DNA of 64,000 bases, taken from the NCBI GenBank assembly GCA_030390025.1, contig JASTWF010000339.1:62001-126000 (forward strand), in the 5' to 3' direction. Under the pieces are notes generated by a model. That model saw only the letters and a program-made list of their open reading frames with translations. It was not told the origin of the DNA and made no database searches. Source of the DNA: Squalus acanthias (Eukaryota). Position 1 is the stretch's first letter, and each line of letters starts with the position of its first letter. Below are positions 1-62,572 of the stretch, in pieces. The position numbers were made by a program, and so were the translations under genes.

Positions 1-205
1 CCCCAGAGCGCTGTGGAGGCTCAGTCCTTGAGTATATTCAAGACAGAGATCGATAGATTTTTGAATATTAAGGGATATGGGGATAGTGCAGGAAAGTGGT
101 GATGAAGTAGAAGATCAGCCATGATCTTTCTGAATGGCGGAGCAGGCTCGAAGGGCCAAATGGCCTACTCCTGCACCTTGTAATTTTTTTATGTTCTTAT
201 GTTCT
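1..205 (+). mobile_element. CR1-type LINE 3' end
   Basis: ORF2 C-terminal remnant, then gatcagccatgatct...gaatggcggagcaggctcgaagggcc...ggcctactcctgc and a ttatgttc tail; same 3' UTR as the CR1 ending at about 7030. Confidence 0.8.
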
Positions 206-433
206 GACATTTCTACAGTGAACACTGCTGACCCCGAGAGTTCCTTCTGCTCCTAACACCTGGCAATGTTCCGGACTGTTCCCGTCTTCATTAATTGAGT
301 GAGGCTGCATAACTGATGGCAGGTCTCGTAACTGAATCACAAAGTTTTAATGATGCAGAGATGCCGGTGTTGGACTGGGGTGGACAAAAGTGAGAAGTCG
401 CACCAGGTTATAGTCCAACAGTTTTATTTGAAA

Positions 434-471
434 TCACAAGCTTTCGGAGCTGCTGCCCCTTCGTCAGGTGA
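434..471 (-). ncRNA. Minimal hammerhead ribozyme motif (mirror copy)
   Basis: Reverse complement of 666-703, in the left arm of the inverted repeat. Confidence 0.6.
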
Positions 472-665
472 AGTGAAGGAATACGAATCGGCAAAGCATA
501 TATAGACAGAGAACAATGCCTGTGTAGCGTACAATCTCAGACAACTACAGTTAATGTGTGTGATGAAAGGCAGTCAGAACGATTAACTGTAGTCGTCTGA
601 GATTGTACGCTACACAGGCATTGTTCTCTGTCTATATATGCTTTGCCGATTCGTATTCCTTCACT

Positions 666-703
666 TCACCTGACGAAGGGGCAGCAGCTCCGAAAGCTTG
701 TGA
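666..703 (+). ncRNA. Minimal type I hammerhead ribozyme motif
   Basis: TCAC-CTGACGA-A-GGGGC-AGCA-GCTCC-GAAA-GCTT-GTGA: stem I TCAC/GTGA, core CUGANGA and GAAA, stem II GGGGC/GCUCC, palindromic AAGCTT stem III. Confidence 0.65.
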
Positions 704-784
704 TTTCAAATAAAACTGTGGGACTATAACCTGGTGTTGTGCGACTTCTCACAAAGTTTTATGTTCAACATCCACTGTCAGCCT

Positions 785-3700
785 TTTTTTTCATTCGTTC
801 ATGGGATCTGGGCGTCGCTGTTATGCCAGCATTTATTGCCCATCCCTAATTGCCATCGAGAAGGTGGTGGTGAGCCGCCATCTTGAACTGCTACAGTCCT
901 GAGGAGACGGTATTCCCACAGTGCTGTTAGGGAGGGATTTCCAGGATTTTGACCCAGCCACGATGAAGGATCGGCGATATACTTCCAAGTCAGGATGCTT
1001 TGTGACTTGGAGGGGAACCTGGAGGTGGTGGTGTTCTCATGCGTTTGCGGCCCTTGTCCTTCTAGGTGATAGAGGTCGCGGGTTTAGAAGCCTTGGCGAG
1101 TTGCTGCAGTGCATCTTGTAGAAGGTCCACACTGCAGCCACGGTACGCCGGTGGTTGAGGGAGTGAATATACAAGGTGGTGAATGGGGTGCTAATCAAGC
1201 GGGCTGCTTTATCCTGGATGGTGTCGAGCTTCTTGAGTGTTGTTGGAGCTGCACTCATCCAGTCAAGTGGAGAGTATTCCATTACACTCCTGACTTGTGG
1301 AAAGTCTTTGGGGAGTCACTTGCAGCAGAATACCTAGCCCCTGACCTGCTCTTGTTGCCACAGTATTGATATGGCTGGTTTGTTAAGTTTCTGGTCAATG
1401 GTGATCCCCAGGATATTAATGGTGGCTGATTCGGCGATGGTAATGCCGTTGAATGTCAAGGAGCGGTGGTTAGGATCTCGCTTTTTGGAGATTGTCATTG
1501 CCTGGTACTTGTGTGGCGCGAATTTTACCTGCCATTTATCAGCACAAGCCTAAATGTCGTCCAGGTCTTGCTGCATGCGAACATGGACTGCTTCATTATC
1601 TGAGGAGTTGTGAATGGCACTGAACTCTGTGCAGTCATCAGCGAACATCCCCATTTCTGACCTTATGTTGGAGGGAAGGTCATTGATTAAGCAGCTGAAG
1701 ATGGCTGGGCCTAGGAAACTGCCATGAGAACTCCTGCAGCGATGTACTGGGACTCTGATGATTGACCTTCAATCACCACAACCATCTTCCTTTGTGCTGG
1801 TATGACTCCAGCCAGTGGAGAGTTTCCGCCCACCCCCGATTCCCATTGACTTCAGTTTTACTAGGGCTCCTTGATGCCACACTCGGTCAAATGCCGACTT
1901 GATTTCAAGGCCAGTCACTCTCACCTCACCTCTGGAATTCAGCTCCTTAGTCCATGATTGGACCAAGGCTGTAAGGGGGTCTGGAGCCGAGTGGTCCTGG
2001 CGGAACCCAGACTGGGCATCAGTGAGCAGGTTATTGATGAGTAAGTGCTGTTTGATAGCACTGTCGACGGAACCTTCCATCACTTTGCTGATGATTGAGA
2101 GTAGACTGATGGGGTGGTAATTGACCGGATTGGATTTGTCCTGCTTTTTTGTGGACAGGACATACCTGGACAGTTTTCTACATTTTCGGATAGATGCCAG
2201 TAGCTGTACTGGAACAGCTCGTCTAGAGGCACGGCTACTTCTGGAGCACAGGTCTTCAGCATGACAGCCGGGATGCTGTCGGGACCCACAGTCTTTGCTA
2301 TATCCAGTGCGCTCAGCCGTTTCTTGATATTACGTGAAGTCAATCGAATTAGCTTAAAACTGGCTTCTGTGGTGGTGGGGACCTCAGGAGGAGGCCGATA
2401 TGGATCATCCACTCGGCACTTCTGGCTGAAGATGGTTGCAAATGCTTCAGCCTTGTCTTTTGCACTCATGTGCTGGGCTCCACCATCATTGAGGATGGGC
2501 ATATTCTTGGAGCCTCCTCCTCCCGTTAGTTGTTTAATGGTCCACCACCATTCACGACTGCATGTGGCAGGACTGCAGAGCTTTGATCTGATCCGTAGAT
2601 TGTGGGATCTCTGTCTATAGCATGCTGCTTCCACTTTTTAGCATGCATGCTGTGTTGCAGCTTCCCCGGGTTGGCATCACATTTTAGGTACGCCTAGAGC
2701 TGCACCTGGCATGCTCTTCTGCACTCCTTATTGAAAAAGGGTTGGTCCCCTGGCCTGATGGTAATGGTAGAGTGAGGGTTATGCCGGGCCATGTGGTTAC
2801 AGATTGTGGTGGAATACAATTCTGCTGCTGCTGATGGCCCACAGCGCATCATGGATGCTCAGTTTTGATCTGCTAGATCCGTTCTGAATCTATCCCATTT
2901 AGCATTGTGGTAGTGCCACACAACCCGATGGAGGATGTGCTCAGTGTGAAGACGGGATTCGTTTCCACAATGACTGTACATTGGTCCCTGCTACCAATGC
3001 TGCCGTGGACAGATGCATCTGCGACAGGTAAATTGGTGATGACGAGGTCAAGTAGCTTTTTCCCTCATGTTGTTTATTCGACCACCATCCCAGGCCAGCT
3101 CGGTCAGTAGTGGTGCTACCGAGCCACTCTTGGTGATGGACTTTGAAGTCCCCCATCCAGAGTACATTCTGTGCCCTTACTACTCTCAGTGCTTCTTCCA
3201 AATGGTGTTCAATATGGAGGAGTACTGATTCATCAGCTGAGGGAGTGTGGTCGGTGGTAATCAGCAGGAGGTTTCTTTGCCCATGCATGACCTGAATCCA
3301 TGAGACTTCATGGGGTCCGGAGTCAATGTTGAGGACTCCCAGGACCAGTCCTTAGCGGCTGCATACGACTGTGCCACCACCCCTCGTGAGTCTGTCCTGC
3401 TGGTGGGACAGGACATACCCAGGGATGGTGATAGAGGGGTTTGGGACATTGGTTGAAAGATATGATTCTGTGAGTATGACTATGTCAGGCTGTTATTGGA
3501 CTAGTCTGCGGGACAGCTGTCCCAATTTTGGCACAAGTCCCCAGATGTTGCAGGGTGGACTGGGCTGGATTTGCCATTGTCGTGTCCACAGCCGGTGCCG
3601 CGTCCGGTTTAATTCTTATTATTTTTCACAGCGGTTTCTTTACACCTGAGTGACTTGCTCGGCCATTTCAGAGGGCAGTTAAGAGTCAACCACATTGCTG

Positions 3701-3945
3701 TGGGTCTGGAGTCACATATAGGCCAGACCGGGTAATAATGGCAGATTTCCTTCCCTAAAGGAAATTACAGCAATCCGGTAGTTTCATGGTCACCTTTACT
3801 GATACTAGCTTTCTATTCCAGATTTATTTAATTAACTGAATTGAAATCCCCCAGTTTCCGTGCTGAGATTTGAATATTCTCTGGATCATTAACCCAGGCC
3901 TCTGAATTACGAACCTAGTAACATTACCACTCCGCTACCGCTCCC
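785..3945 (-). mobile_element. Degenerate near-full-length non-LTR retrotransposon (CR1-group, here 'family B')
   Basis: Fragmented ORFs with APE-like (WMGDFKVHH) and RT motifs (GPDSIP, QSGFR, SAFDRVWH, MEYSPLDW); 3' tail cccatgaacgaat plus poly-A at about 785-810; homologous to 21885-25074. Confidence 0.85.
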
Positions 3946-3959
3946 GATCATTTATCCAG

Positions 3960-4250
3960 ACAGCGCTGTGCAGTGCTGAGCAAGTGCTGCATTGTAGGAG
4001 GTGCCTTTCATCGAATGAGGCCTCATGCTCTGCCACTTCCGGTGGTTCCGATGGACACCGAAGATCCCAGGTGACTATCAGAAGCAGAGCTCGGAGTTTT
4101 CACTGTGTCCTCGCAACATCCCCATCTCAAAGTCAGAAGCTCCAATTGTCCGTCCACCCCTAGTTGTTTGCGAATCTTTCGGCACAAGTTGACTTCCAAA
4201 AGTGAATAATTTTACAGTAATTCATCGGATGAGGGAGTTTTGGATCCTCC
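3960..4250 (+). mobile_element. Old Deu-SINE-like element
   Basis: tgcagtgctgag...gtgctgcattgtaggaggtgcc...aagatccca...gtgtcctcgcaacat resembles the Deu-SINE central domain (from recall); shared with the duplicate at about 21610-21870. Confidence 0.45.
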
Positions 4251-4448
4251 GCAGGTTCTCATCCTTTTTAAATGCACTTTTTCCTATTTTCTTGTTACTT
4301 TCCACTTTCATTGTCGGTTTCATATTTACCTTTCGAAAATATCTTCTCTACTGCTTTACTGATATGTTATTTCTTTGTCTATTTGATGTTCCCACGTTTG
4401 TTTGGAGGTATTTCCGATGCTCTCTTGTTCTCCAACAGAAGCAGGTGT

Positions 4449-6929
4449 CCAAACAGTAGTAGTGAGGTGGGGGAGGGTATGAAACAGGAAATCAGAGGTG
4501 CATGCAAAAAAGGCGCAGCAGTTATCATGGGTGACTTTAATATGCATATAGATTGGGCTACTCAAACTGGAAGCAATACGGTGGAGGAGGATTTCCTGGA
4601 GTGTTTAAGGGATGGTTTCCTAAACCAATATGTTGAGGAACCAACTAGAGGGGAGGCCATCCTGGACTGGGTGTTGTGTAATGAGGAAGGACTAATCAGC
4701 AATCTTGTGGTGCGAGGCCCCTTGGGGAAGAGTGACCATAGTATGGTGGAGTTCTACATTAGGATGGAGAAGGAAACAGTTAATTCAGAGACCATGGTCC
4801 AGAACTTAAATAAGGGCAACTTTGAGGGTATGAGGCGTGAATTGGCGAGGTTAGATTGGCAAGCGATATTTAAGGGGTTATCAGTGGAAGGGCAATGGCA
4901 GACATTTAGAGATCGCATGGATGAACTACAGCAATTGTACATCCCTGTCTGGCGTAAAAATAAAAAAGGGAAGGTGGCTCAACCATGGCTAACAAGGGAA
5001 ATCAGGGATAGTATTAAAAGCAAGGAAGTGGCATACAAATTGGCCAGAAGTAGCAGCAAACCCGGGGACAGGGAGAACTTTAAAACTCAGCAGAGGAGGA
5101 CGAAGGGTTTGATTAGGGCAGGGAAAATAAAATATGAAAGGAAGCTTGCGGAGAACATTAAAACAGACTGCAAAAGCTTCTATAAATATGTAAAAAGAAA
5201 GAGGTTAGTAAAAACAAACGTAGGTCCCCTGCAGTCAGAAACAGGGGAAGTCATAATGGGGAACAAAGAAATGGCTGATCAATTGAACAAGTACTTTGGT
5301 TCGGTGTTTACTGTGGAGGACACAAACAACCTTCCGGAAATAAAAGAGATCAAAGGATCTGGTAAGAGGGAGGAGCTGAGGGAAATCGTTATCAGTCGGG
5401 AAAAGGTGTTGGGGAAATTGATGGGACTGAAGGCTGATAAATCCCCAGGGCCTGATGGTCTGCATCCCAGAGTACTTAAGGAGGTGGCCTTGGAAATAGT
5501 GGATGCATTGACGATCATTTTCCAACATTCCTTAGACTCCGGATCAGTTCCGAAGGAGTGGAGGGTGGCTAATGTAACCCCTCTTTTTAAAAAAGGAGGG
5601 AGGGAGAAAGCAGGGAATTATAGACCGGTCAGCCTGACATCGGTGGTGGGTAAAATGATGGAATCAATTATTAAAGATGTCATAACAGACCATTTGGAAA
5701 GTGGCGACATGATAGGTCCAAGTCAGCATGGATTTGTGAAAGGGAAATCATGCTTGACAAATCTTCTGGAATTTTTTGAGGATGTTTCCAATAGGGTGGA
5801 CGGGGGGGAACCAGTAGATGTGTTGTATTTGGACTTTCAGAAGGCCTTCGACAAGGTCCCACACAAGAGATTGGTGTGCAAAGTTAAAGCACATGGGATT
5901 GGGGGTAATGTGTTGACGTGGATTGAGAACTGGTTGGCACACAGGAAACAAAGAGTAGGAGTAAATGGGTACTTTTCAGAATGGCAGGCAGTGACCAGCG
6001 GGGTACTGCAGGGTTCGGTGCTGGGGCCCCAGCTGTTTACATTATATATTAATGATTTGGACGAAGGGATTAATTGTAATATCTCCAAATTTGCGGATGA
6101 CACTAAATTGGGAGGCAGTGTGAACAATGAGGAGGATGCTAGGAGGCTACAGAGTGACTTGGACAGGTTGGGTGAATGGGCAAATGTATGGCAGATGAAG
6201 TACAATGTGGATAAATGTGAGGTTATCCACTTTGGTGGTAAAAATAGGGAGGCAGACTATTACCTGAATGGTGGCAGATTAGGGAAAGGGGAGGTCTAAC
6301 GAGACCTGGGCGTCATGGTACATCAGTCACTGAAGGTGGGAAGGCAAGTGCAGCAGGCAGTCAAGAAAGCAAATGGCATGATGGCCTTCATAGCAAGGGG
6401 ATTTGAGTACAGGAGTAGGGAGGTGATGCTACAGTTGTACAGGGCCTTGGTGAGGCCACACCTGGAGTATTGTGTGCAGTTTTGGTCTCCTAACTTGAGG
6501 AAGGACATTCTTGCTATTGAGGGAGTGCAACGAAGGTTCACTAGATTGATTCCTGGGATGTCCAGACTGACATATCAAGAAAGACTGGATCAACTGAACT
6601 TGTATCCTCTGGAGTTCAGAAGAATGAGGGGGGATCTTATAGAGACGTTTAAAATCCTGACTGGTTTAGACAAATTAGATGTGGGCAGAATGTTTCCAAT
6701 GTTAGGGAAAACTAAAACCAGGGGTCACAGTCTAAGGATAAAGGGGAAGCCATTTAAGACTGAGATGAGGAGGAATTTCTTCACCCAGAGAGTGGTGAAT
6801 CTGTGGAATTCTCTACCACAGAAGGTTGTTGAGGCCAGTTCGCTAAATATATTCAAAAGGGAGTTAGATATAATACTCACAACTAGGGGGATCAAGGGGT
6901 ATGGCGAGAAAGCAGGAATGGGGTACTGA
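4449..6929 (+). pseudogene. CR1 ORF2 (APE C-part + reverse transcriptase) with one in-frame stop
   Basis: MGDFN, SDH, KSPGPDG, YRPVSL, QHGF, DFQKAFD, QGSVLGP, KFADD motifs; ORFs 4272-6299 and 6315-6929 are in one frame, separated only by TAA at 6297-6299. Confidence 0.9.
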
Positions 6930-7030
6930 GGTAGCATGTTCAGCCATGAACGCATTAAATGGCGGTGCAGGCTCGAAGGACCGAATGGTCTACTCCTGCA
7001 CCTATTTTCTATGTTTCTATGTTTCTATGT
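4449..7030 (+). mobile_element. Young 5'-truncated CR1 LINE
   Basis: ORF2 from mid-endonuclease to the C-terminus, 3' UTR and (tttctatg)3 tail; absent from the paralogous intron, where gcaggtgcccacagc-gtaagcgatc is contiguous (about 21311-21335, - strand). Confidence 0.93.
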
Positions 7031-7139
7031 AAGCGATCCGTTTCCAACTCAGGATCACTTGTCAAAGCTGTAAATTTCACACTGAATCCTGTCAAACGGA
7101 TGATTTTGCTGGGATTCGGACCAGCAATATTCCTGTTCT

Positions 7140-7540
7140 CGCTCTCACACATATTCACTCTCTCTCCCTCTCTCTCACGCACATTCACTCTCTCTCCCTC
7201 TCTCTCACACACATTCACTCTCTCTCCCTCTCTCACACACATTCACTCTCTCTCCCTCTCTCTCACACACATTCACTCTCTCTCCCTCTCTCCCTCTCTC
7301 ACTCTCTACCTCTCTCTCACACACATTAACTCTCTCTCCCTCTCTCACGCACATTGACTCTCTCTCCCTCTCTCTCACACACATTAACTCTCTCCTTCTC
7401 TCTCACACACATTCACTCTCTCTCCCTCTCTCTCACACATTAACTCCCTCTCCCTCTCTCTCACACACATTCACTCTCTCTCCCTCTCTCACACACACAT
7501 TCACTCTCTCTCCCTCTCTCACATTCCCTCTCTCTCTCTG
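7140..7540 (+). repeat. About 30-bp CT-rich minisatellite (cacattcactctctctccctctctctcaca)n
   Basis: Directly visible; abuts the splice acceptor ttacag at 7541-7546. Confidence 0.9.
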
Positions 7541-7546
7541 TTACAG

Positions 7547-8457
7547 CTAACTTGGCAGTGATTGTGATCCTGTCCCGAGGAAGGTGCGGTCTCTCCAGAT
7601 GTGTCACTCGGTACCTGGTGTCCATGGCGGTGACGGATCTCCTGGTCATTATCACCGCTGTGATATTAAACCGGATTGCTGTTATTTATTTCCCATAAAG
7701 TTTCCTGTCCCTCACTCCGGTCTGTAGTCTCCGTTCTGCCCTAATCTATGCAGTCATAGACAGTTCTGTCTGGTTCACGGTCGCTTTCACCTTTGATCGA
7801 TTTGTGGCCAATCGTTGCCAGAAGCGGAAAACAAAATATTGCATCGGGAAAACGGTGGCGGGAGTTATAGGAAAGGTCTGTGCTCTGAGCTGCTTCAAAA
7901 ATACCTTCTTGTATTTTATATATGAACCTTTGTACACAATTAACAACATACCCTGGTTCTGCAGCATAAAATTAATATATTATACCTCACCTGCATGGAT
8001 CGTATTTGACTGGATTCACCACATTGTAACCCCGTGTCTCCAAATCATTCTGATTTTGCGGCTCAATGCTCTGACCGTCAGACACATTCTAGCGGCCAGT
8101 AGAGCCCGCAGGAGACTCCGAACCCACAGCAATGGGGATAATTAGAGTGACCCAGAGATGGAGAGCCGGAAAAGGTCCATCGTCTTACTCTTCTGTATCT
8201 CGGGCAATTTCAGCCTGTTACATGTGTTATTACTGAGAACTTTCCTCTATGTCCGGATTACGAACGTTACTTATAATAACTCAGGTTCCAATTTCAATGA
8301 ATCAACTTTTATTCTGGAGGAAAGCAGATATATGCTTCAGTTTTTGAGTTCCTGCATCAACCCGTTTATTTATGCAGGGACTCAGGGCAAATTCAGAGAG
8401 GAGTTAAAGAATGGGGTGAAATATCCTCTGAGTCTAATTGTTAAATCATTTAAATGA
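7547..8457 (+). pseudogene. GPR139-like class A GPCR, exon 2, pseudogene
   Basis: Acceptor AG 7545-7546, then NLAVIVILSRGRCG...FTFDRFVA...NPFIY; in-frame stops TAA 7696-7698 and TAG 8143-8145; exon 1 not in the window. Confidence 0.88.
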
Positions 8458-9429
8458 TGAAAATAGTAAAGTATAGCATGAATTGTACCTTATATTCCAT
8501 GCTGTGCTCTTCTTGTCCGTGTCAGACACGGCCTCCACTCCCAGATACACAGTCACTCACTCTAAGATCCTTACCCAATGTGAATTTAAGAATGTATGAG
8601 GAACACTGCATCAGCGCACAATTCAGTGTTGTAACCCGTTCTCAGTTAGTTTCCAGTTCTCTTGTCGGTGCTGACTCAGGCCTGGGACATTCCCACCAGC
8701 CACGAGGGCCCTGGAGTATCTTTACATTCATGGGGAGTCCGACCTCTGATCGGTGATTGGATATCAAGTTTAACTGTTTAATGAAGGGACCCAATGTCCC
8801 TCCTGGGAATGGTTTGCATCTTGAGGCTCGGATACGCTCTGAAATGGCAGCACGCGCTGTCCCCACGCATTGTTCTCCGCTCATTGGGCCCCGCCCCACA
8901 GCCGCACTCCTGTGTCCATAAACACAGGAACAGAGGAATTGCTGGAGGATAAAGACAAAGGACCATCCAGGTCACTTTCTGCTCTTTTCAATGTCCAATT
9001 GGGACGTCATCCCCAGTGTAATTAAACAAAATAAAATTAATCTAACGAACGTGCCCCCCTTTGTAAAGGGGCACAAACAATAATCAACAAAATCATACAA
9101 ATAGAAAACTTTGTAAATTAAATGAGAATATTATCTTCACTATCTTTTATACACTCAAGTCTAGTTCGCTTTTTACCATCCTGGTAGTCCCCCGATACAA
9201 TCATAATGGAGTTGTTGCCTAATCACAGAAATCAATCTCTGTCGAATAGTCTACAACAGACCCAGACATGAGGTGAGGAAAACCCCAGTGGTGGAGAGCT
9301 TCAGGAACCATAGGACCACAGTCACCTGTTCCTCCCGAGCACACTGCACTTACCACATGTCATGTCCCTAATTACTCACATACTGTGTCCCCAAGTGTTA
9401 TACTAGGAAGGATATCTATTTAATTTGCA

Positions 9430-19158: not shown

Positions 19159-20066
19159 TCATTTAACTAATTTAACAATTAGACTCATTGGATATTTCAC
19201 CCCATTCTTTAACTCCTCTCTGAATTTACTCTGGGTCCCTGCATAAATAAACGGGTTGATGCAGGAACTCAAAAGCTGAAGGATAAATCCGCTTTCATTC
19301 AGAATAAAATTTGATTGATTGATATTTGTACCTGAAAAATAAGTAAGTTTCGCAATCCGGACATAGAGGAATCTTATAAGAAACAACAACCATAACAGGA
19401 TGAAAATGCCCGAGATACAGAAGAGTAAGAGGATGGACTTTCTCCGCTTCTCCATCTCTGGGTCAATCTGATTCTCTCCATTGCTGTGGGCCCGGAGTCT
19501 CCTGCGGGCTCTACTGGCCGCTAAAATGTGTCTGACGGTAAGAGCATTGAGCAGCAAAATCAGAATTAATGGGAGACACGGGGATAAAATGCGATTAATC
19601 CAGTCATATGCGATCCATGCTAGTGAGGTATAAAATGTTGATGTTATGCTGCAGAACCAGGGATTATTGTTAATTGTGTACAACGGTTCATATATAAAAT
19701 ATAAGAAGGTAGCTTTCAAACAGTTTAAGACACAGACCGTTCCTTTAACCACCGCCGCCGTTTTATCGGTGCAATATTTTATTTTCAGCTTCTGGCAACA
19801 AATGGCGACAAATCGATCAAAGGTGAAAGCGACCGTTACCCAGACAGAACTGTCGGTGACTGCATAGATTAGGGCAAAACGGAGACTACAGACCGGAGTG
19901 ATAGACAGGAAACTAAACGGGAAATAAATACCACCAATCCGGTTAAATATCACAGCGGTGATAATGACCAGAAGATCCGTCATCGCCATGGATACCAGGT
20001 ACAGAGTGATACATCTGGAGAGACCGCACCTTCCTCGGAACAGGATCACAATCACTGCCAAGTTAG
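19159..20066 (-). CDS. GPR139-like class A GPCR, coding exon 2 (intact)
   Basis: Uninterrupted ORF with 7TM features, DRF and NPFIY motifs; acceptor ttacAG at 20068-20067; joins exon 1 in phase 1 (G|CT = Ala) to give 325 aa. Confidence 0.9.
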
Positions 20067-20073
20067 CTGTAAC

Positions 20074-21210
20074 AGAGAGAGAGAGAGAGAGAGAAATTGA
20101 GAGAGTGACAGAGAGTGAATGTGTGTGAGAGAGAGGGAGAGAGAGTGAATGTGTGTGAGAGAGAGGGAGAGCGAGTGAATGAATGAGAGAGGGAGAGAGA
20201 GTGAATGTGTGTGAGAGAGAGGGAGAGAGAGTGAATGTGTGTGAGAGAGAGGGAGAGAGAGTGAATGAGTGTGTGAGAGAGGGAGAGCGAGTGAATGAGT
20301 GTTAGAGAGAGTGAATGAGTGTGAGAGAGGGGGAGAGTGAATGTGTGTGAGAGAGAGGGAGAGAGAGTGAATGAGTGTGTGAGAGAGGGAGAGCGAGTGA
20401 ATGAGTGTTAGAGAGAGGGAGAGAGAGTGAGTGAGTGTTAGAGAGAGGGAGAGCGAGTGAATGAGTGTTAGAGAGAGGGCCAGAGAGTGAATGAGTGTGT
20501 GAGAGAGGGAGAGCGAGTGAATGAGTGTTAGAGAGAGGGAGAGAGAGTGAATGAGTGTTAGACAGAGGGCCAGAGAGTGAATGAGTGTGAGAGAGGGAGA
20601 GCGAGTGAATGAGTGTTAGAGAGAGGGAGAGAGAGTGAATGAGTGTGTGAGTGAGAGAGAGAGTGAATGTGTGTGAGAGAGAGGGAAAGAGATTGAATAT
20701 GTGTGAGAGAGAGGGAGAGAGAGTGAATGTGTGTGAGAGAGGGAGAGAGTATTAATGTGTCTGTGAGAGAGTGAGAGAAAGTGAATGTGTGTGAGAGAGA
20801 GGGAGAGAGAGTTAATGTGTGTGAGAGTGAGGGAGAGAGTGTGAATGCGTGTGTGAGAGAGGGAAAGAGATTGAATATGTGTGAGAGAGAGGGAGAGAGA
20901 GTGAATGTGTGTGAGAGAGAGGGAGAGAGAGTTAATGTGTCTGAGAGAGAGGGAAAGAGATTGAATATGTGTGAGAGAGAGGGAAAGAGATTGAATATGT
21001 GTGAGAGAGAGTGAGAGAGAGTTAATGTGTGTGAGAGAGAGGGAGAGAGAGTGAATGTGTGTGAGAGAGAGTGAGAGAGAGTTAATGTGTGTGAGAGAGA
21101 GGGAGAGAGAGTTAATGTGTGTGAGAGAGAGTTAATGTGTGTGTGAGAGAGAGAGAGAGAGTTAATGTGTGTGAGAGAGAGTGAGAGAGAGTAAATGTGT
21201 GTAAGAGCGA
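20074..21210 (-). repeat. About 30-bp CT-rich minisatellite, expanded copy
   Basis: (gagagagggagagagagtgaatgtgtgtga)n on the + strand; paralogue of 7140-7540. Confidence 0.9.
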
Positions 21211-25074: not shown

Positions 25075-25159
25075 GTTTTAGAGTGGATATTGAACTTAAA
25101 CCTTTGTGACTCAGTTATGCAGCCTCACTCAATGATTGAAGACGGGAACTCCCGGGCTC

Positions 25160-32830: not shown

Positions 32831-32900
32831 TTGAGTGGCCGTCTTAGTGGATCACTGTGGAAGTAACGGCTGCGATAATGCTGAAGTTGAAATTGAATCC

Positions 32901-32982
32901 ACAAGCTTTCGGAGCGCTCCGAAAGCTTGTAATTTCAAATAAAGCTGTTGGAGTATAACCTGGTGTTGTGCGACATATTCAC
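32901..32982 (+). mobile_element. Penelope-like pLTR remnant with 30-bp perfect palindrome
   Basis: acaagctttcggagc|gctccgaaagcttgt followed by aatttcaaataaagctgttggagtataacctggtgttgtgcgac, matching 687-745. Confidence 0.7.
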
Positions 32983-34177: not shown

Positions 34178-34346
34178 CCTTTATCCCCTCCCCCTTTTCC
34201 CAGCTTTACCCTGGCCTTAAATCTATTTGATTTCCAGCTCTTCCCAGTTCTGATGAAAGGTCATCGACCTGAAACGTCAACTCTCTTTCTCTCTCTACGG
34301 ATGCTGCCTGGCCTGCTGAGTTTTTCCAGCGTTTTCTGTTGTTATT
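34178..34346 (+). mobile_element. Short Penelope-like insertion in CR1 ORF1
   Basis: Flanked by 10-bp direct repeat TCAGAGAGTT (34168-34177 and 34347-34356); contains a hammerhead core and a gatgctgcctggcctgctgag...tccagc tail. Confidence 0.75.
34246..34282 (+). ncRNA. Minimal type I hammerhead ribozyme motif
   Basis: AGTT-CTGATGA-A-AGGTC-ATC-GACCT-GAAAC-GTC-AACT: canonical core, stem II AGGTC/GACCT, GUC cleavage triplet at 34276-34278, stem I AGTT/AACT. Confidence 0.75.
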
Positions 34347-43966: not shown

Positions 43967-44865
43967 TTATTTAATTAAATTACCTATTAGTTTGAGCGGA
44001 TATTGCACCATATTCTTTAACTCTTCCCTAAATTTGCTCTGTGTCACTGCATAAATAAATGTGTTTGTGCAGCAACTCAACAGCTGAAGCATTTGCACTT
44101 TCTCGGAGAATAAATTTGGGGTCACTGAAACCGTTGATTTTATAATCATTTGTAAATCGTTCATATAAGAATTGTACAACATACGTCATCCACAACAGGA
44201 TGAAACTGCCCGAGATGGTGAAGAGTAAAACGATGGACTTTTTCCGGCTCTCCATCTCTGGGTCACTCTGATTCTCGCCATTGCCGTGGGCCCGGAGTCT
44301 CCTGCGGGCTCTACTGGCCGCTAGAATGTATCTGACGGTCAGAGCATTGAGCAGCAAAATCAGAATGAATGGGAGACACGGGGTTAAAATGCGGTCACTC
44401 CATTGGAAAGCTTCCCGTACGGGTGAAGTATTATGGAGTTCCTTCAGTCTGCAATACCACGGGACATTGTTAATTATGATAATGGGTTCATGTATAAAGT
44501 ACCAGGGGATATCGATTAAACATCCCAGGGCACAGATCGTTCCTATTACAATGGCAGCCGTTCTCTTGGTGCAATATTTTGTTTTCAGCTTCTGGCAACA
44601 AATGGCCACAAATCGATCGAAGGTGAAAGCGACCGTTAACCAGACAGAACTGTCTCTGGCTGCATAGATTAACGTAATGCTGAGACTACATACGGGCGTG
44701 ATGGACAGGAAGCTACCTGGAAAATAAATAGCAGGAATCCGGTTTAATATCACAGCGTGATAATGACCAGGAGATCCGTCACCGCCATGGACACCAGGTA
44801 CCGAGTGATACATCTGGAGAGACCGCACCTTCCTCGGGACAGGATCACAATCGCCACTAAATTAA
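43967..44865 (-). pseudogene. GPR139-like GPCR exon 2, frameshifted pseudogene
   Basis: Acceptor ttacAG 44867-44866; NLVAIVILSRGRCG, FTFDRFVAICC, NTFIY; frameshifts near 44757 (1-nt loss in ACC GCT) and near 44095. Confidence 0.87.
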
Positions 44866-52935: not shown

Positions 52936-53322
52936 CTGCAGGGGTTAGATTCTGCTGTTTTTGCTGCTGTTAATCTCATCCAGGACTGAACCATGTTCAT
53001 TCTGACAGTTGGAGTTTGTTTCTGCTGATGTTAATAACCCCTCTAACTGGGCTGGAGTTTAATATTCTGGATATACGTCAAATAGATTAACTTTGTTTCC
53101 AACACACCGTGGGTCGAATCCTTGATTTCTCCAAGATAAGAGGAGACTAATTGATGTCCTGTTAATGACTGCTCCATTTTTGGGCCTTTTCTCTTTTCTA
53201 ACTCAAGAGTATTTCAGTTCTCACACCTTTAGTTACTCTCGTGCTCAAGCCCCAGCTCCCCAAACCTTCCAGAGTGCCTCTCCTAGCCTTGGTATCAAGC
53301 GAAGGTATCGGTAACATGTCCG

Positions 53323-56300
53323 TGTACCTGCCCTGGGAGTGTTTGATGGGACAGTATAGAGGGAGCTTTACTCTGTATCTAACCAGTGCTGTACCGGCCC
53401 TGGGAGTGTTTGATGGGACAGTATAGAGGGAGCTATACTCTGTAACTAACCCCTTCTATAACTGCCCTCGGAGTGTTTGATGGGACAGTATAGAGCGAGC
53501 TTTACTCTGCATGTAACCCGTGCTGTACCTACCCTGGGAGTGTTTGGTGGGACAATGTAGAGGGATCTTTACTCTGTATCTAACCCGTGCTGTACCTGGC
53601 CAAGGAGTGTTTGATGGGATAATGTAGAGGGAGTTTTATTCTGTATCTAACCTGTGCTGTGCCTGCCCTGGGAGTGTTTGATGGGACAGTACAGAGGAAG
53701 CTTTACTCTGTATCTAACCCGTGCTGTACCTGCCCTGTGAATGTTTGATAGGACAGTGTAGAGGGAGCTTTACTCTGCATCTAATCAGTGCTGTAGCTGC
53801 CCTGGGAGTGTTTGATGGGACAGTGTAGTGGGAGCTTCACTCCGCATCTAATCCGTGCTGTACCAGTCCTGGGAGTGTTTGATGGGATAGTGTTGATGGA
53901 GTTTTACTCTGTATCTAACCCGTGCTGTACCTGCCCGGGGAGTGTTTGATGAGACAGTCTCGAGTGAGTTTTACTATGTATCTAACCTGTGCTGTACCTG
54001 CCCTGGGAGTGTTTGATGGGACAGTATACAGCGATCTTTACTCTGCAGCTAACCCGTGCTGTACCTGCCCTGGGAGTGTTTGGTGGGACAGTGCAGGGGG
54101 AGCTTTACTCTGTATTTAACCCGTGCTGTACCAGCCCTGGGAGTGTTTGATGGGACAGTGTGGAGGGAGCTTTACTCTGTATCTAACCCGTGCTGTCCCT
54201 GCCCTGGAGTGTTTGATGGGACAGTGTAACGGGAGTTTTACTCTGCATGTAACCTGTGCTGTACCTGCCCTGGGAGTGTTTGATGGGACAGTGTAGAGGG
54301 AGCTTTGTGCTGTACCTGCCCTGGGAGTGTTTGATGCGACAGTATACAGCGATCTTTATTCTGTAGCTAACGCGTGCTGTACCTACCCTGGGAGTGTTTG
54401 GTGGGACAATGTACAGGGAGCTTTACTCTGTCTCTAACCCGTGCTGTACCTGCCCTGGGAGTGTTTGATGGGATAGTGCAAAGGGAGCTTTATTCTGTAT
54501 CTAACCCGTGCTGTACATGCCCTGGGAGTGTTTGATGGGATAGTGTAAAGGGAGTTTTACTCTGTATGTAATCCGCGCTGTACCTTCCCTGGGAGTGTTT
54601 TACAGGACAGTGTAGAGGGTGCTTTACTCTGTATCTAACCATGCTGTACCTGCTCGGGGAGTGTTTGATGGGACAGTATAGAGGGAGCTATACTCTGTAA
54701 CTAACCCCTTCTATAACTGCCCTCGGAGTGTTTGATGGGACAGTATTTCGCGAGCTTTACTCTGTATGTAACCCGTGCTGTACCTACCCTGGGAGTGTTT
54801 GGTGGGACAATGTAGAGGGATCTTTACTCTGTATCTAACCCGTGCTGTACCTGGCCCAGGAGTGTTTGATGGGATAATGTAGAGGGAGTTTTATTCTGTA
54901 TCTAACCTGTGCTGTGCCTGCCCTGGGAGTGTTTGATGGGACAGTATAGAGGAAGCTTTACTCTGTATCTAACCCGTGCTGTACCTGCCCTGTGAATGTT
55001 TGATGGGACAGTGTAGAGGGAGCTTTACTCTGCATCTAATCCGTGCTGTACCTGCCCTGGGAGTGTTTGATGGGACAGTGTAGTGGGAGCTTTACTCTGC
55101 ATCTAATCCGTGCTGTACCAGCCCTGGGAGTGTTTGATGGGACAGTGTAGAGGGAGCTTTGTGCTGTACCTGCCCTGGGAGTGTTTGATGGGACAGTATA
55201 CAGCGATCTTTACTCTGTAGCTAACCCGTGCTGTACCTACCCTGGGAGTGTTTTGTGGGACAATGTACAGGGAGCTTTACTCTGTCTCTAACCCGTGCTG
55301 TGCCTGCCCTGGGAGTGTTTGATGGGATAGTGTTGATGGAGTTTTACTCTGTATTTAACCCGTGCTGTACCTGCCCTGGGAGTGTTTGATGAGACAGTAT
55401 AGAGGGAGCTTAACTCTGTATCTAACCCGTGCTGTACCTGCCCTGGGAGTGTTTGATGGGACAGTGTAGAGGGAGCTTTACTCGGTATCTAAACCATGCT
55501 GTACGTGCCCTAGAAGTGTTTGATGGGATAGTGTAAAGGGAGCTTTACTCTGTATGTAACCCGCGCTGTACCTTCCCTGGGAGTGTTTGATGGGACAGTG
55601 CAGAGGGAGCTTTACTCTGTCTTTAACCCGTGCTGTAACTGCCCTGCGAGTGTTTGATGGGTCAGTATAGAGGGAGCTTTACTCTGGTACTAACCCCTGC
55701 TGTACCTGCCCTGGGAGTGTTTGATCGGACAGTGTAGAGGGAACTTTACTCTGTATCTAATCCGTGCTGTACCTGCCCTCGGAGTGTTTGATGGGACAGT
55801 ATTGAGCGAGCTTTACTCTGTATGTAACCCGTGCTGTACCTGCCCGGGGAGTGTTTGATGGGACAGTCTCGAGCGAGTTTTACTATGTATCTAACCCGTG
55901 CTGTACCTGCCCTGGGAGTGTTTTACAGGACAGTGCAGAGGGAGCTTTAATCTGTATCTAACCCGTGCTGTACCTGCCCTGTGAATGTTTGATGGGACAT
56001 TGTAGTGGGAGCTTTACTCTGTTTCTAACCCGTGCTGTACCTGCCCGGGGAGTGTTTGATGGGACAGTATCCAGCGAGTTTTACTCTGTATCTAACCCGT
56101 GCTGTAGCTGCCCTGGGAGTTTTGATGAGACAGTATAGAGGGAGCTTTACTCTGTATCTATACGTGCTGTACCTGCCCTGGGAGTGTTTGATGGGATAGT
56201 GTATAGGGAGCTTTACTCTGTATCTGACCCCACACTGTACCTTCCCTGGGAGTGTTTGAAGGGTCAGTGCAGGGGGAGCTTTACTCTGTATTTAACCCGT

Positions 56301-59300
56301 GCTGTTCCTGCCCTGGAAGTGTTTGATGGGACAGCCCAGAGGGAGCTTTACTCTGTATCTAACCCGTGATGTAACTGCCCTGGGAGTGTTTGACGGGACA
56401 GTAGAGAGGGAGCTTTACTCTGGATCTAACCCGTGCTGTACCTGCCCTGCGAGTGTTTTACAGGACAGTGTAGAGGGAGCTTTGCTCTGTATCTAACCAT
56501 GCTGTACCTGCTCGGGGACTGTTTGATCGGACAGTATAGAGGGAGCTATAATCTGTAAATAACCCCTGCTATAATTGCCCACGGAGTGTTTGATGGGACA
56601 GTATTTCGCGAGCTTTACTCTGTATGTAACCCGTGCTGTACCTGCCCTAGCAGTGTTTGATGGGATAATGTAGAGGGAGTTTTATTCTGTATCTAACCTG
56701 TGCTGTGCCTGCCCTGGGAGTGTTTGATGGGACAGTATAGAGGGAGCTTTACTCTGTACCTAACCCGTGCTGTACCTGCCCTGTGAATGTTTGATGGGAC
56801 AGTGTCGAGGGAGCTTTACTCTGTATCTAATCCGTGCTGTACCTGCCCTGTGAGTGTTTGATGGGACAGTGTAGTGGGAGCTTTACTCTGTATCAAATCC
56901 GTGCTGTACCAGCCCTGTGAGTGTTTGATGGGTTAGTGTAAAGGGAGCTTTACTCTGTATCTAACCTGTGCTGCACCTGCCCTGGGAGTGTTTGATGGGA
57001 CAGTGTAGAGGGAGCTTTACTCTGGATCTAACCCGTGCTGTACCTGCCCTGCGAGTGTTTTACAGGACAGTGTAGAGGGTGCTTTACTCTGTATCTAACC
57101 ATGCTGTACCTGCTCGGGGAGTGTTTGATGGGACAGTATAGAGGGAGCTATACTCTGTAACTAACCCCTTCTATAACTGCCCTCGGAGTGTTTGATGGGA
57201 CAGTATTTCGCGAGCTTTACTCTGTATGTAACCCGTGCTGTACCTACCCTGGGAGTGTTTGGTGGGACAATGTAGAGGGATCTTTACTCTGTATCTAACC
57301 CGTGCTGTACCTGGCCCAGGAGTGTTTGATGGGATAATGTAGAGGGAGTTTTATTCTGTATCTGACCTGTGCTGTGCCTGCCCTGGGAGTGTTTGATGGG
57401 ACAGTATAGAGGAAGCTTTACTCTGTATCTAACCCGTGCTGTACCTGCCCTGTGAATGTTTGATGGGACAGTGTAGTGGGAGCTTTACTCTGCATCTAAT
57501 CCGTGCTGTACCTGCCCTGGGAGTGTTTGATGGGACAGTGTAGTGGGAGCTTTACTCTGCATCTAATCCGTGCTGTACCAGCCCTGGGAGTGTTTGATGG
57601 GATAGTGTTGATGGAGTTTTACTCTGTATCTAACCCGTGCTGTACCTGCCCTGGGAGTGTTTGATGGGACAGTGTAGAGGGAGCTTTACTCTGTATCTAA
57701 CCCGTGCTGTCCCAGCCCTGGGAGTGTTTGCTGGGATAGTGTCGTTGAAGTTTTACTCTGTATCTAACCCGTGCTGTACCTGCCCGGGGAGTGTTTGATG
57801 GGACAGTCTCGAGCGAGTTTTACTATGTATCTAACCCGTGCTGTACCTCCCCTGGGCGTGTTTGATGGGACAGTGTAGAGGGAGCTTTACTCTGTATCTA
57901 ACCCGTGCTGTACCTGCCTTAGGAGTGTTTGATGGGACAGTGTAGAGGGATCTTTAATCTTTATCTAACCCATGCTGTACCTGCCCCAGGAGTGTTTGAT
58001 GGGACAGATTAGAGCGAGCTTTACTCGAAATCTAACCCATGCTGTACCTGCCCCAGGAGTGTTTGATGGGACAATGTAGAGGGAGCTTTACTCTGTATCT
58101 AACCCGTGCTGTACCTGCCCTGGGAGTGTTTGATGGGACAGTGTAGAGGGAGCTTTACTCTGTATTTAACCTGTGCAGTACCTGCCCTGGGAGTGTTTGA
58201 TGGGACAGTGTGGAGGGAGCTTTGTGCTGTACCTGCCCTGGGAGTGTTTGATGGGACAGTATACAGCGATCATTACTCTGTAGCTAACCCGTGCTGTACC
58301 TACCCTGGGAGTGTTTGGTGTGACAATGTACAGGGAGCTTTACTCTGTATTTAACCCGTGCTGCACCTGCCCTGGGATTGTTTGATGGGACAGTGTAGAG
58401 GGAGCTTTACTCTGTATCTAACCCGTGCTGTACCTGCCCTGGGAGTGTTTGATGGGACAGCACAGAGGGAGCTTTACTCTGTATCTAACCCGTGCTGTAC
58501 CTGCCCTTGGAGTGTTTGATGGGACAGTAGAGAGGGAGCTTTACTCTGGATCTAACCCATGCTGTGCCTGCCCTGCGAGTGTTTTACAGGACAGTGTAGA
58601 GGGTGCTTTACTCTGTATCTAACCATGCTGTACCTGCTCGGGGAGTGTTTGATGGGACACTGTAGTGGGAGCTTTACTCTGTATCTGATCCGTGCTGTAC
58701 CAGCCCTGGGAGTGTTTGATGGGACACTGTAGTGGGAGCTTTACTCTGTATCTGATCCGTGCTGTACCAGCCCTGGGAGTGTTTTACAGGACAGTGTAGA
58801 GGGAGCTTTACTCTGTATCTAACCCGTGCTGTACCTGCCCTGTGAATGTTTGATGGGACAGTGTAGTGGGAGCTTTACTCTGTATCTGACCCGTGCTGTA
58901 CCTGCCCGGGGAGTGTTTGACGGGACAGTATCCAGCGAGTTTTACTCTGTATCTAACCCGTGCTGTAGCTGCCCTGGGAGTTTTGATGAGACAGTATAGA
59001 GGGAGCTTTACTCTGTATCTAACCCGTGCTGTACCTGCCCTGGGAGTGTTTGATGGGATAGTGTATAGGGAGCTTTACTCTGTATGTAACCTTTGCTGTA
59101 CCTGCCCTGGGAGTGTTTGATGGGACAGTACAGAGGGAGCTTTGCTCTGTATCTGACCCCATACTGTACCTGCCCTGGGAGTGTTTGATGGGATAGTGTA
59201 AAGGGAGTTTTACTCTGTATGTGAACCGCGTTGTACCTTCCCTGGGAGTGTTTGATGGGACAGCACAGAGGGAGCTTTGCTCTGTATTTAACCCGTGCTG

Positions 59301-59760
59301 TACCTGCCCTGGGAGTGTTTGATGGGACAGCCCAGAGGGAGCTTTACTCTGTATCTAACCCGTGCTGTACCTGCCCTGGGAGTGTTTGACGGGACAGTAG
59401 AGAGGGAGCTTTGCTCTGGATCTAACCCGTGCTTTACCTGCCCTGCGAGTGTTTTACAGGACAGTGTAGAGGGAGCTTTACTCTGTATCTAACCATGCTG
59501 TACCTGCTCGGGGACTGTTTGATGGGACAGCATAGAGGGAGCTATAATCTGTAAATAACCCCTGCTATAACTGCCCTCGGAGTGTTTGATGGGACAGTAT
59601 TTCGCGAGCTTTACTCTGTATGTAACCCGTGCTGTACCTGCCCTAGCAGTGTTTGATGGGATAATGTAGAGGGAGTTTTATTCTGTATCTAACCTGCGCT
59701 GTGCCTGCCCTGGGAGTGTTTGATGGGACAGTATAGAGGGAGCTTTACTCTGTACCTAAC
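53323..59760 (+). repeat. 67-bp satellite array (about 6.4 kb)
   Basis: Unit tgggagtgtttgatgggacagtgtagagggagctttactctgtatctaacccgtgctgtacctgccc, with recurring variant blocks. Confidence 0.97.
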
Positions 59761-62572
59761 TTTCCTTTTCTGGGGGTCTGGGTTGTTTGCAGCGCACACA
59801 AGACAGTTTGCACAGAACTCGCGGACCTGTTCCCTGAGCCCTGGCCACCATCCCGCTTGCTCTACCCGTTGCCAGGTAACCTCGGGCCCGGGGTGCCCTG
59901 CCCCTGGTCCCTCGTGAGCCAACTGGAGGAATTCCCTCCTGTGCTGCTGCGGCACAACCCACTGCTCCTCGCGGAACAGCATGCCTTCCTTAACTGAGAG
60001 GGTTGCCGTACTGTACGGACCCTCTACCTGCTTCCCCTCAGCAATGGTTTTGAGGACTGCTTTTAGGGCGGGATCCTGGTTCTGGACGGTCTTAAGGTCT
60101 AGGGGCAATGCTACCCTGGGGTTCCCGGGATTCCCGTCCCTGCCTTGGATCGCTGCCATGGGTCTGGTCCCATAGGGGTCCCAGAAAATGCCGTTGCGGG
60201 CACCTTCCCTGGCTAGCGCATCCGCCTGCTGGTTGCCCTCCCCACGGGGCTCTGTGGAGGAGTGAGCTTTCACCTTATGGATGAAAATCTCCCCTTCCTC
60301 CCCTACTGCTGCTAGGATCTTTTTCAGCAAGGGCTTCACCGTTAAAGGTCGCCCGTCCGCGGAGGTGTATCCACGGCGGGACCAAATGGCCAGGTATTCC
60401 GTACACGAATTGCAGGTGAACATACTGTCCGAGCAAATCGTGTATGGGGTTGGGAAAATGTCTGGGTGGGTAACAACGTACACCACAGCAGACAGCTCAG
60501 CCTGCTGCGCGCTCATGGTGCTAGGGAGCTTGATCGCCAGGGCAAGGTTTGCCGCAGGGTCATAAACTCCACACCCCGTGAGTCGTTCGCCAGCAGATAC
60601 TGTGCTAGAACCATCAACATAAATCTCGCGCCCAGTGGGATGTATCCCGGCCCGCAAACCTATGTTGACGTCCCACACCCCTTCCACCGAACATCGGTGG
60701 GCTGTACCGGGGTATACCAAATTGGCCGCAACTGGGCTCGCAAAGACCTTTAACTCTAAGATCCATCTGGGAAAGAAGAAGGGTCCAGCGCGCAATACGC
60801 ACGCTGCTTACGGTCCCATCTTTAATCCTCCCATCTAGAAGCATCTTAGTTGGTGTGTGATGGGTGAGGAGAGTGATGGGAGAGAGCCCTGTGAAGATCG
60901 CTGATCTTTTCACAGCCCAATGCGTGGCTAAAAGGTGCCTTTCGCAATTGGAAAAACTTCTCTCCACATCCGTTAACACCCTGGACGAATAGACAACCGG
61001 CCTCAGCTTGCCGTGACGCTCTTGGAGCAGCACAGCGCTCAAGCTGTCCCCGCTGGCAGCTACCTCCAGGAAAAACTCCTTCCCCCCATCTATGGCCCCT
61101 AAAGCTGGCGCGGTCTGCAGATCCCTTTTTAACTTCTCGAAGGCTGCTTGGCAGCCCTCGTCCCAAGACAACTCCACTCCCTTATGGAGGAGTCGGAGGA
61201 GCGGCGCCGCTGTGGCCGCATAGTCTTCGATAAAATCCCTGCAGTAACCGGTCAGTCCCAAGAAGGACCTCACACCCCTTATGTTGTTAGGAATCGGTAA
61301 CTCTTGCACCGACTCCCTCCTAGCCTTATCTATGGCTCTTTCCCCAGCGCGAATGGTCAGCCCCAGGAATTTTACTTCCTGCTGACTGATACGTGCTTTC
61401 TTAGGGTTTACTTTAAAACCCTTTCTCGCTAGCAGCTCCAATAACTCGTCCAGCAGTGGTCCATGCTCCTCCCTTGAATCCGTAAATAGGAGCAAATCAT
61501 CCACGTACTGCACTATCTGATTGGGCTGACTAAACTCCTTTAAACTTCCTGCCATACACTGATGGAAAATACTGGGGCTATTGTGGAAACCCTGTGGCAG
61601 ACAGTTCCATGTGTACTGTTGTCCTTTGAAAGTAAAGGCAAACTTGTACTGGTCCTCTCGCCGCAGCGGGATGGACCAAAAACCGTTCGAGATATCCAGC
61701 ACCGTGAACGTGGTCGCGGACGCTGGGATACTCCCTATTAGGTCAGCAACTGCTGCTACCGTGGGTGCGCAGGCGGGAATGTTACTGTTAAGGACTCTGT
61801 AGTCCACCGTGGCCCTCCACGAATTATCCGGCTTCCTAACCGGCCATAATGGGGAGTTCACGTGTGTGGCTATCGGCCTCAACACGCCCTGCTGCACCAA
61901 GGAGGACATTGCTGTCTCCATATCGGGTTCTGCTTCTTTGGGGAAGTTATACTGTTTTTGGGGCCGGGTCATGGGGTCCCCATCTACGCTGACCTCAAAC
62001 CCGGTAACCCTCCCACAATCGTGCTTGTGGGTTGCAAACGCGTGCATATTATCTGACACGTACGTTTGCATGTCCGTTGGGACATCTGCGACCATAAGCC
62101 CGAGGTCGTAGCCTCCGGATGGCTGCATGGTACACAGGACCCCTGTTTCTTCCTCCCCCGGAATTACCACTACCTCGCCTTTTTCACTCTTAGCCCCCCA
62201 GAGACAATGATTTCTGAGGTCCACGAGGATCCCGTGTCCTGATAGGAGATCGGACCCGAGGATACCTCTTCCACCCCCCTCCTGCCATTCCATCAGTATG
62301 CACTTCCACTTGATGTGAAGTGCCCCCAAACGAATGGATAGTGGAAAGGAGAACGCGCCAGCCTGTTCTTTTCCCGTGAACCCCGCTAATGTGAATGGGA
62401 CCTTGGTAGATAGCGGTGAGTCAAAAGGGCTATCTGTATGAATCACGGTGCAAGAAGCTCCCGTGTCCAACAAATAACTACCCTTCTGTTTCTCTACCTC
62501 CATCTCCACCAAGGGTCGCTTCCACGCATCATAGCTGAGCGGACACAGGTAGACGGGCTGCGCGGGCTCTAG
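59761..62572 (-). pseudogene. pol: pol (protease, RT, tether, RNase H, integrase N-terminus)
   Basis: LLDTGA; NSPLWPVRKPD, LDISNGFW, LPQGF, YVDD; IYVDGS / QAEL / SDS / ADALA; HEGPGAGH...CANCLVC; one frameshift near 60730. Confidence 0.88.

Follow-up and report, generated by a model that had tools for sequence, protein, structure and literature searches.

The window, 64,000 nt of animal DNA that is rich in repeats and includes satellites, receptor genes and the remnants of LINEs, carries a short non-coding insertion made of two inverted arms and bounded by a TSD (Table 1). The insertion measures 399-403 nt and holds no ORF, with stops in all three sense frames. Its arms pair 401-555 with 582-736 (155 nt) and, in addition, 390-403 with 739-752. 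When aligned, they are identical at 164 of 166 bases, the mismatches lying at 417/720 and 543/594, and there is one 5-nt gap on the left-arm side; the change at left-arm position 543 is of the CpG type. Each arm also contains promoter-like motifs, which point outwards from the centre. The original prediction described near-perfect arms of about 165 bp around a 26-nt spacer. The arms are as described, but the 26 nt that separate them (556-581) are not a neutral spacer, as 24 of these are element sequence (558-581). Nor do the arms fill the whole insertion: the original prediction missed a tail at 350-389, which is present on one arm only and finds no counterpart in the right arm.

Table 1. Features of the insertion and of related sites in the window (positions in nt, strand as read in the window)
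Feature	Position	Strand	Remarks
Left TSD copy	337-349	+	13 bp, 10/13 A/T
Tail, one arm only	350-389	-	40 nt; 44 nt if 749-752 is assigned to the target
Left arm, 5'-truncated pLTR copy	390-555	-	5 nt deleted at 403/404 in this copy only
Minimal type I hammerhead motif, left arm	434-471	-	mirror image of 666-703; cleavage site predicted after 438
Junction bases	556-557	.	2 nt unlike both the continuation of the arm and the upstream sequence of the family
Unpaired centre	558-581	+	24 nt of element sequence running on into the right arm
Right arm, pLTR copy without tail	582-752	+	one private change at 720 (G720)
TATA-like hexamer (633) and initiator-like pentamer (661)	633-665	+	mirror copy in left arm; putative basal promoter
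Minimal type I hammerhead motif, right arm	666-703	+	stem I 666-669/700-703; core 670-676, followed by an additional A677; stem II 678-682/687-691; then 692-695 and palindrome 695-698; cleavage site predicted after U699 (CUU)
Right TSD copy	749-761	+	first 4 nt double as element sequence (junction microhomology)
Receptor (7tm_1) copy	~7500-8500	+	no frame >148 aa within 7200-8700, plus strand
Receptor (7tm_1) copy	19162-20301	-	380-aa open frame
Uninterrupted paralogous site	25097-25109	-	12/13 identical to TSD, no insertion
Another fold-back piece of this pLTR family, shorter	32885-32974	.	spacerless, centred in stem II
Receptor (7tm_1) copy	44031-44861	-	

The predicted 13-bp flanking direct repeat is exact, 337-349 and 749-761 agreeing without a mismatch; for comparison, an exact 13-mer was common to 209 of 20,000 random pairs of 70-nt segments, in a window that is rich in tandem repeats. 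Long inverted arms, the lack of an ORF and a flanking direct repeat would also suit a DNA transposon derivative, such as a MITE or a fold-back element that ends in long inverted repeats. However, 40 unpaired nt lie between the left TSD and the arm, so the inverted repeats do not abut the TSD at both ends. In addition, the joints between arms differ between copies among those listed from public sequencing runs, the second copy in the window has another layout, and the hammerhead motif in the arms varies at 680 and 699 in ways that keep it valid. We consider an origin from a DNA transposon very improbable. An assembly or library artefact, for example a fold-back read, would agree with the fact that the whole stretch is spanned by no listed contig. 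Yet the arms differ by 2 bases and a 5-nt gap, the TSD is exact, and both flanks are collinear with a paralog, which makes an artefact barely credible.

This paralog provides a view of the site before insertion. At one mismatch or fewer, the TSD 13-mer occurs elsewhere in the window at 25097-25109 on the minus strand alone, confirming the single site without an insertion that had been noticed there, and placing it inside an old inverted duplication. The flanks, with the insertion cut out, align straight through this site, save for a 19-nt gap just upstream. In a chunked alignment the duplication is collinear (278-9429 against 25149-18214), with 11.8% and 9.5% substitutions in its two large blocks, and it spans a LINE, the LINE flank and a rhodopsin-family receptor gene. 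We also considered that the empty site might be a mere second copy of the adjacent LINE and rejected this, as the homology passes the LINE 3' end and at its other end reaches the receptor gene. The empty site is paralogous rather than allelic, being about 10-12% diverged and having 19 nt missing nearby; an empty-allele joint (349 to 762) was not among the 15 joints listed of 247. As the arms differ by 2 substitutions in 166 bases and the paralogs by about 10%, the duplication is probably far older than the insertion, barring later homogenisation of the arms, and it is in this relative sense that the predicted recent insertion stands. The locus is valuable because it shows the two junctions and the TSD alongside a paralog in the pre-insertion state, which bears on how Penelope elements form inverted ends and tails.

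What kind of element is this? We propose, with a probability of roughly 0.8, that it is a dead-on-arrival insertion of the pLTR, that is, the 3' end, of an endonuclease-bearing Penelope-like retrotransposon, consisting of two head-to-head 5'-truncated copies between the TSD copies. The locus has an inverted 5'-truncated copy (5' ends at 582 and 558 in right-arm numbering), a tail at one end only, a type I minimal hammerhead in the pLTR, an A/T-rich TSD, and a dispersed family with variable truncation. Membership in the Penelope-like group is thus suggested by non-coding features, and the origin first proposed for the insertion gains support from the hammerhead type, the tail, the TSD and the inverted truncated copies. 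No GIY-YIG match was found among the 20 window ORFs scanned of 50, and 4 of 4 pattern scans of metagenome, viral and prokaryote collections returned 0 loci, so that they linked no reverse transcriptase/GIY-YIG ORF to the family.

The accessible parts of published descriptions of Penelope-like elements contain close counterparts. One reports an inverted 5'-truncated copy with a tail of 30-40 bp, often at one end only, and terms the origin of the inverted ends and tails undefined (PMC8557442). Another, on rotifers, reports inverted pLTRs with TSDs of 8-10 bp, an optional 31-bp tail, and a pair of TATA and initiator-like motifs in the pLTR, and proposes self-priming (PMC3846280). Very short, 5'-truncated new insertions are also on record (PMC9977147). 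Like the complex insertions of the first two sources, the present one combines unequal head-to-head pLTR copies, a one-end tail, a TSD, TATA/initiator-like motifs and an A/T-rich target. It differs in that it comprises 399-403 nt without an ORF, has 24 unpaired central element bases where a palindrome is absent, and has a TSD of 13 bp as against 8-10 bp in the rotifer examples (PMC3846280). The layout is therefore already known for Penelope-like elements, and the insertion is a clean example rather than a new type of element. Retrozymes are more distant, as far as the accessible text of their description goes (bioRxiv 10.64898/2026.07.22.740005). The non-LTR retrozyme, with at least 2 head-to-tail units each carrying a type I hammerhead, is likewise non-coding, pLTR-derived and equipped with a type I motif, but here the copies are head-to-head and a tandem array over the element was not found. 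The LTR retrozyme has direct LTRs, a type III hammerhead and a 4-bp TSD, whereas here the repeats are inverted, the motif is of type I and the TSD is 13 bp long.

For the hammerhead motifs, we used a strict descriptor of the minimal hammerhead, which demands stems I and II of at least 4 bp, the conserved core, a palindromic insert and a valid triplet. In the window it matched at cores 670 (+) and 467 (-), plus one unrelated motif at 34250, and none of 300 dinucleotide-shuffled versions of the window gave a match. The hammerhead with palindromic stem III claimed for each arm is accordingly found in both arms and in 0/300 shuffles. The covariance-model check proposed for these motifs turned out differently: the Rfam models recognised no hammerhead family at E<=10, either on 1-3000 or on 640-740, and the missing helix III may explain this. 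Rfam microRNA matches were sub-threshold and due to the long hairpin, and were dismissed as artefacts. The unrelated motif (34246-34282, +) is a single minimal hammerhead of a different sequence family, with a GUC triplet and a palindromic stem III.

Both motifs resemble the minimal hammerheads of metazoan Penelope-like elements, as presented in the accessible part of PMC4209133, in their short stem I, the extra base between 9 and 10.1, the G10.1-C11.1 pair, the palindromic 15.2-16.2 and the lack of helix III; they differ in having a 5-bp stem II with one G-U pair and a CUU triplet. In the same source, paired motifs are reported on opposite strands at distances of 100-700 bp, and dimers showed low cleavage and single motifs none. 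A term search of one of its supplementary files gave no match to the family sequence. Its motif alignments, figures S1-S2 of PMC11167929, and other figures or supplements may already show the family or the layout.

Whether these motifs could act at this locus is a separate matter. The two hammerheads lie on opposite strands, and no RNA therefore bears both in sense; read-through from either side transcribes the antisense arm first. The RNA of the insert is predicted to fold at -324.6 kcal/mol (+) and -317.6 kcal/mol (-), which agrees with the long hairpin foreseen for a read-through RNA, if the locus is transcribed. In the same predicted folds the motif's own stems have a pairing probability of 0, and this, together with their opposite strands, argues against two ribozymes acting together. 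Read-through RNA would form a duplex of about 165 bp that conceals both hammerheads. Isolated 660-710 is predicted to fold as a hammerhead (stem II 0.99, stem I 0.85-0.96), while single-arm RNAs ending at 752 give hammerhead stem II only 0.02-0.08. An RNA start at 663 was considered as a means of rescuing the hammerhead fold and rejected, with stem II at 0.02 up to 752. A double-hammerhead dimer can be folded at -19.9 kcal/mol, compared with -22.4 for two monomers and -28.1 for another dimer, and is thus not the dimer that the models favour. RNA fold models leave out tertiary contacts and proteins, and with that proviso double-stranded RNA is the more likely effect of the locus than self-cleavage, if it has any. 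The hammerheads would be passengers of the pLTR that cannot pair up in cis here. In run X11, which is presumed to be RNA, the family sequence is present, with zero depth over 200-334. Tails like repeat 3' ends at 183-205 and 784-792 seem aimed at the insertion, and read-through from these neighbours is conceivable. If stubs of this kind were read through, the result would be long double-stranded RNA directed at their own family.

The wider family, a very abundant one, was visible in 4 public runs out of 20 listed, which we compared with positions 200-1000 at 90% likeness. Depth over the element far exceeded depth over the left flank in all four (in X1, 36,000-3.6 million against 146-2,084), although these values do not measure copy number. 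Fifteen contigs of X11 terminate at 350 with flanks that are unlike each other (agreement 0.44), and two flank-bearing records, X5-18 and X6-25, leave the element at 350 with 46 and 54 further letters; as contigs end there with unrelated flanks, 350 is the 3' end of the family. At the other end, records X1-4, X1-5 and X5-21 read from 558 into the right arm, and 15 X1 contigs extend upstream of 558 with one consensus. Since records cross 558 into the arm, 24 of the 26 nt taken for a spacer belong to the element, and the right copy reaches further at its 5' end than the left. The family also retains the 5 nt missing at 403/404, as shown by loose ends behind 403 in 4/4 runs.

Sequence variation in the family bears on its hammerhead. 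At position 680, a G to A change in 48-72% of depth restores a Watson-Crick pair, the U to C change at 699 leaves the triplet valid, and at the core positions no change of at least 5% is listed among contigs at least 90% alike. Such variation at 680 and 699, compatible with a valid motif, points to selection in the parent element and not in this copy. A different position is informative about the copy itself: G stands at 601 and at its mirror in both arms, where the family has C in 91-98% of depth in 4/4 runs. A G601 common to both arms fits a single donor locus or template.

Joints between arms offer a test of how far the inverted unit is itself a mobile entity, as the original prediction would have it. 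Fourteen of the 15 joints listed (247 in total) are arm-to-arm, and after two mirror pairs are merged 12 of them are distinct. None of the contigs listed crosses the 555/558 centre, although contigs of about 70-180 nt cannot show the absence of a second identical unit. A hairpin element in its own right, non-autonomous, mobilised in one piece by Penelope proteins and bearing a ribozyme on either strand, would account for a self-contained insertion bounded by a TSD, with two intact motifs, promoter-like motifs directed outward from the centre, and no core change of 5% or more listed among the contigs at least 90% alike. Such an element is nevertheless quite improbable in our view: there are 12 distinct joints among 14 listed, no listed piece spans this centre, the other copy in the window (32885-32974) differs in its centre, and read-through folding abolishes both motifs. 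That other copy is without the catalytic core, and a flanking repeat of at least 6 nt was not found around it. As far as the listed joints go, the inversion seems to have been rebuilt copy by copy, and the mobile unit in its own right gives way to a family that is repeatedly inverted.

The positions of the joints are not all alike. Seven of the 14 listed have one end at 663/664, where an initiator-like motif lies 30 nt below the TATA-like motif. As a lead only, 663/664 may be the pLTR transcription start, 3 bases before hammerhead stem I. Position 687 might have been a hot spot of inversion, and the additional G in front of 663/664 the copy of a cap; we rejected both ideas, as loop II variants in the family can account for them.

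An inverted insertion with two unequal copies could arise in at least two ways from the same Penelope-like element. First, both nicked target strands could prime cDNAs that are later joined, a mechanism that we hold to be somewhat better than an even bet. On the top strand, the left TSD runs straight into antisense element sequence that starts at the tail end; on the bottom strand, the right TSD runs into antisense sequence that starts at the tail-less end, with 4 nt common to the target. In this scheme the endonuclease would nick an A/T-rich target on each strand, with 13 nt between the nicks, and each nicked 3' end would prime cDNA on element RNA. One cDNA would begin at the distal start site (the tail end, 350) and the other at the proximal start site (~749-752), aided by the 4-nt microhomology. 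Both cDNAs would halt early, at 582 and 558 (right-arm numbering), and would be end-joined with 2 added bases. The accessible text on the Anolis Poseidon element PAc describes several of these abilities (PMC11167929): its protein cuts and extends both strands and prefers A/T-rich DNA, the tail is flanked by two start sites, priming occurs without homology, and the hammerhead is dispensable for insertion in vitro. On this reading the present insertion would be like PAc in its tail-flanking start sites, in the cutting and extension of both strands and in its A/T-rich target, and unlike it in the 4-nt microhomology at one junction and a core without a start codon. In that same text, as covered by a term search, inverted insertions are not discussed.

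Second, the same element could have been inverted by self-priming, or fold-back, of one strand; the endonuclease would then have trimmed the tail from one end, or the centre would have been lost in a subsequent deletion. Self-priming has been put forward for rotifer elements on the basis of palindromes where inverted copies meet, in the accessible part of PMC3846280, and would be in keeping with the spacerless palindrome at 32885-32974, centred in stem II, with the zero offset at joints 450>687 and 474>663, and with a G601 in both arms that fits one template. For the present insertion, one-strand fold-back fits less well, as the centre is without priming microhomology and the strand that is continuous through the centre begins without a tail; the tail sits on the would-be copy arm and not on the template. 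The 4-nt target microhomology at the tail-less end, moreover, suggests target priming there. Arm identity might itself stem from later conversion, and the centre was possibly reshaped after insertion, removing junction evidence. Overall, we regard fold-back of one strand as unlikely, if well worth keeping in mind.

A later rearrangement could also have produced the short centre. Long palindromes are unstable, and what is seen may be left over from an inverted Penelope insertion that was longer at first and then lost its middle. The two foreign central bases fit end-joining, and a small deletion has already occurred in the left arm. Few later changes are seen, however, with 2 substitutions in 166 aligned bases, and the family has many short inverted forms, so that this history seems to us improbable, though less so than a dedicated hairpin element. 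Twin priming of L1 gives a further point of reference. In L1, too, an inverted truncated insertion forms between TSDs and the second strand primes with microhomology, as proposed here, but each piece is copied from a separate part of a single RNA. In the present insertion both pieces copy the same stretch, and two RNAs or a tandem RNA would be needed (L1 twin priming as a comparison system is covered in the accessible part of PMC2837659).

Returning to two-strand priming, a wider form of the model, which we hold tentatively and at slightly less than even odds, is that fold-back stubs in general record two-strand priming from the start sites flanking the tail, with many of the shortest cDNAs running off at a pLTR transcription start near 663. 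If this is true, the inverted pLTR and the one-sided tail would arise in a single step, an origin that the cited papers, in their accessible parts, leave open, and counts of the many stubs that one assembly contains could serve to test the model. In searches of the main text of open papers on Penelope elements, a two-strand-priming origin of such stubs was not found stated.

The remainder of the window shows other repeats and genes. Within the inverted duplication that holds the LINE and receptor gene (278-9429/18214-25149; 9.5-11.8% substitutions), a second LINE at about 4434-7028 is present in the left copy only. A structure search with the receptor ORF gave no match at E<=1e-20. Further along, 59692-62572 (-) contains pol frames of LTR-retroelement type, with protease, RT, RNase H and an integrase zinc finger, and these frames adjoin a long tandem array at about 53300-59760.
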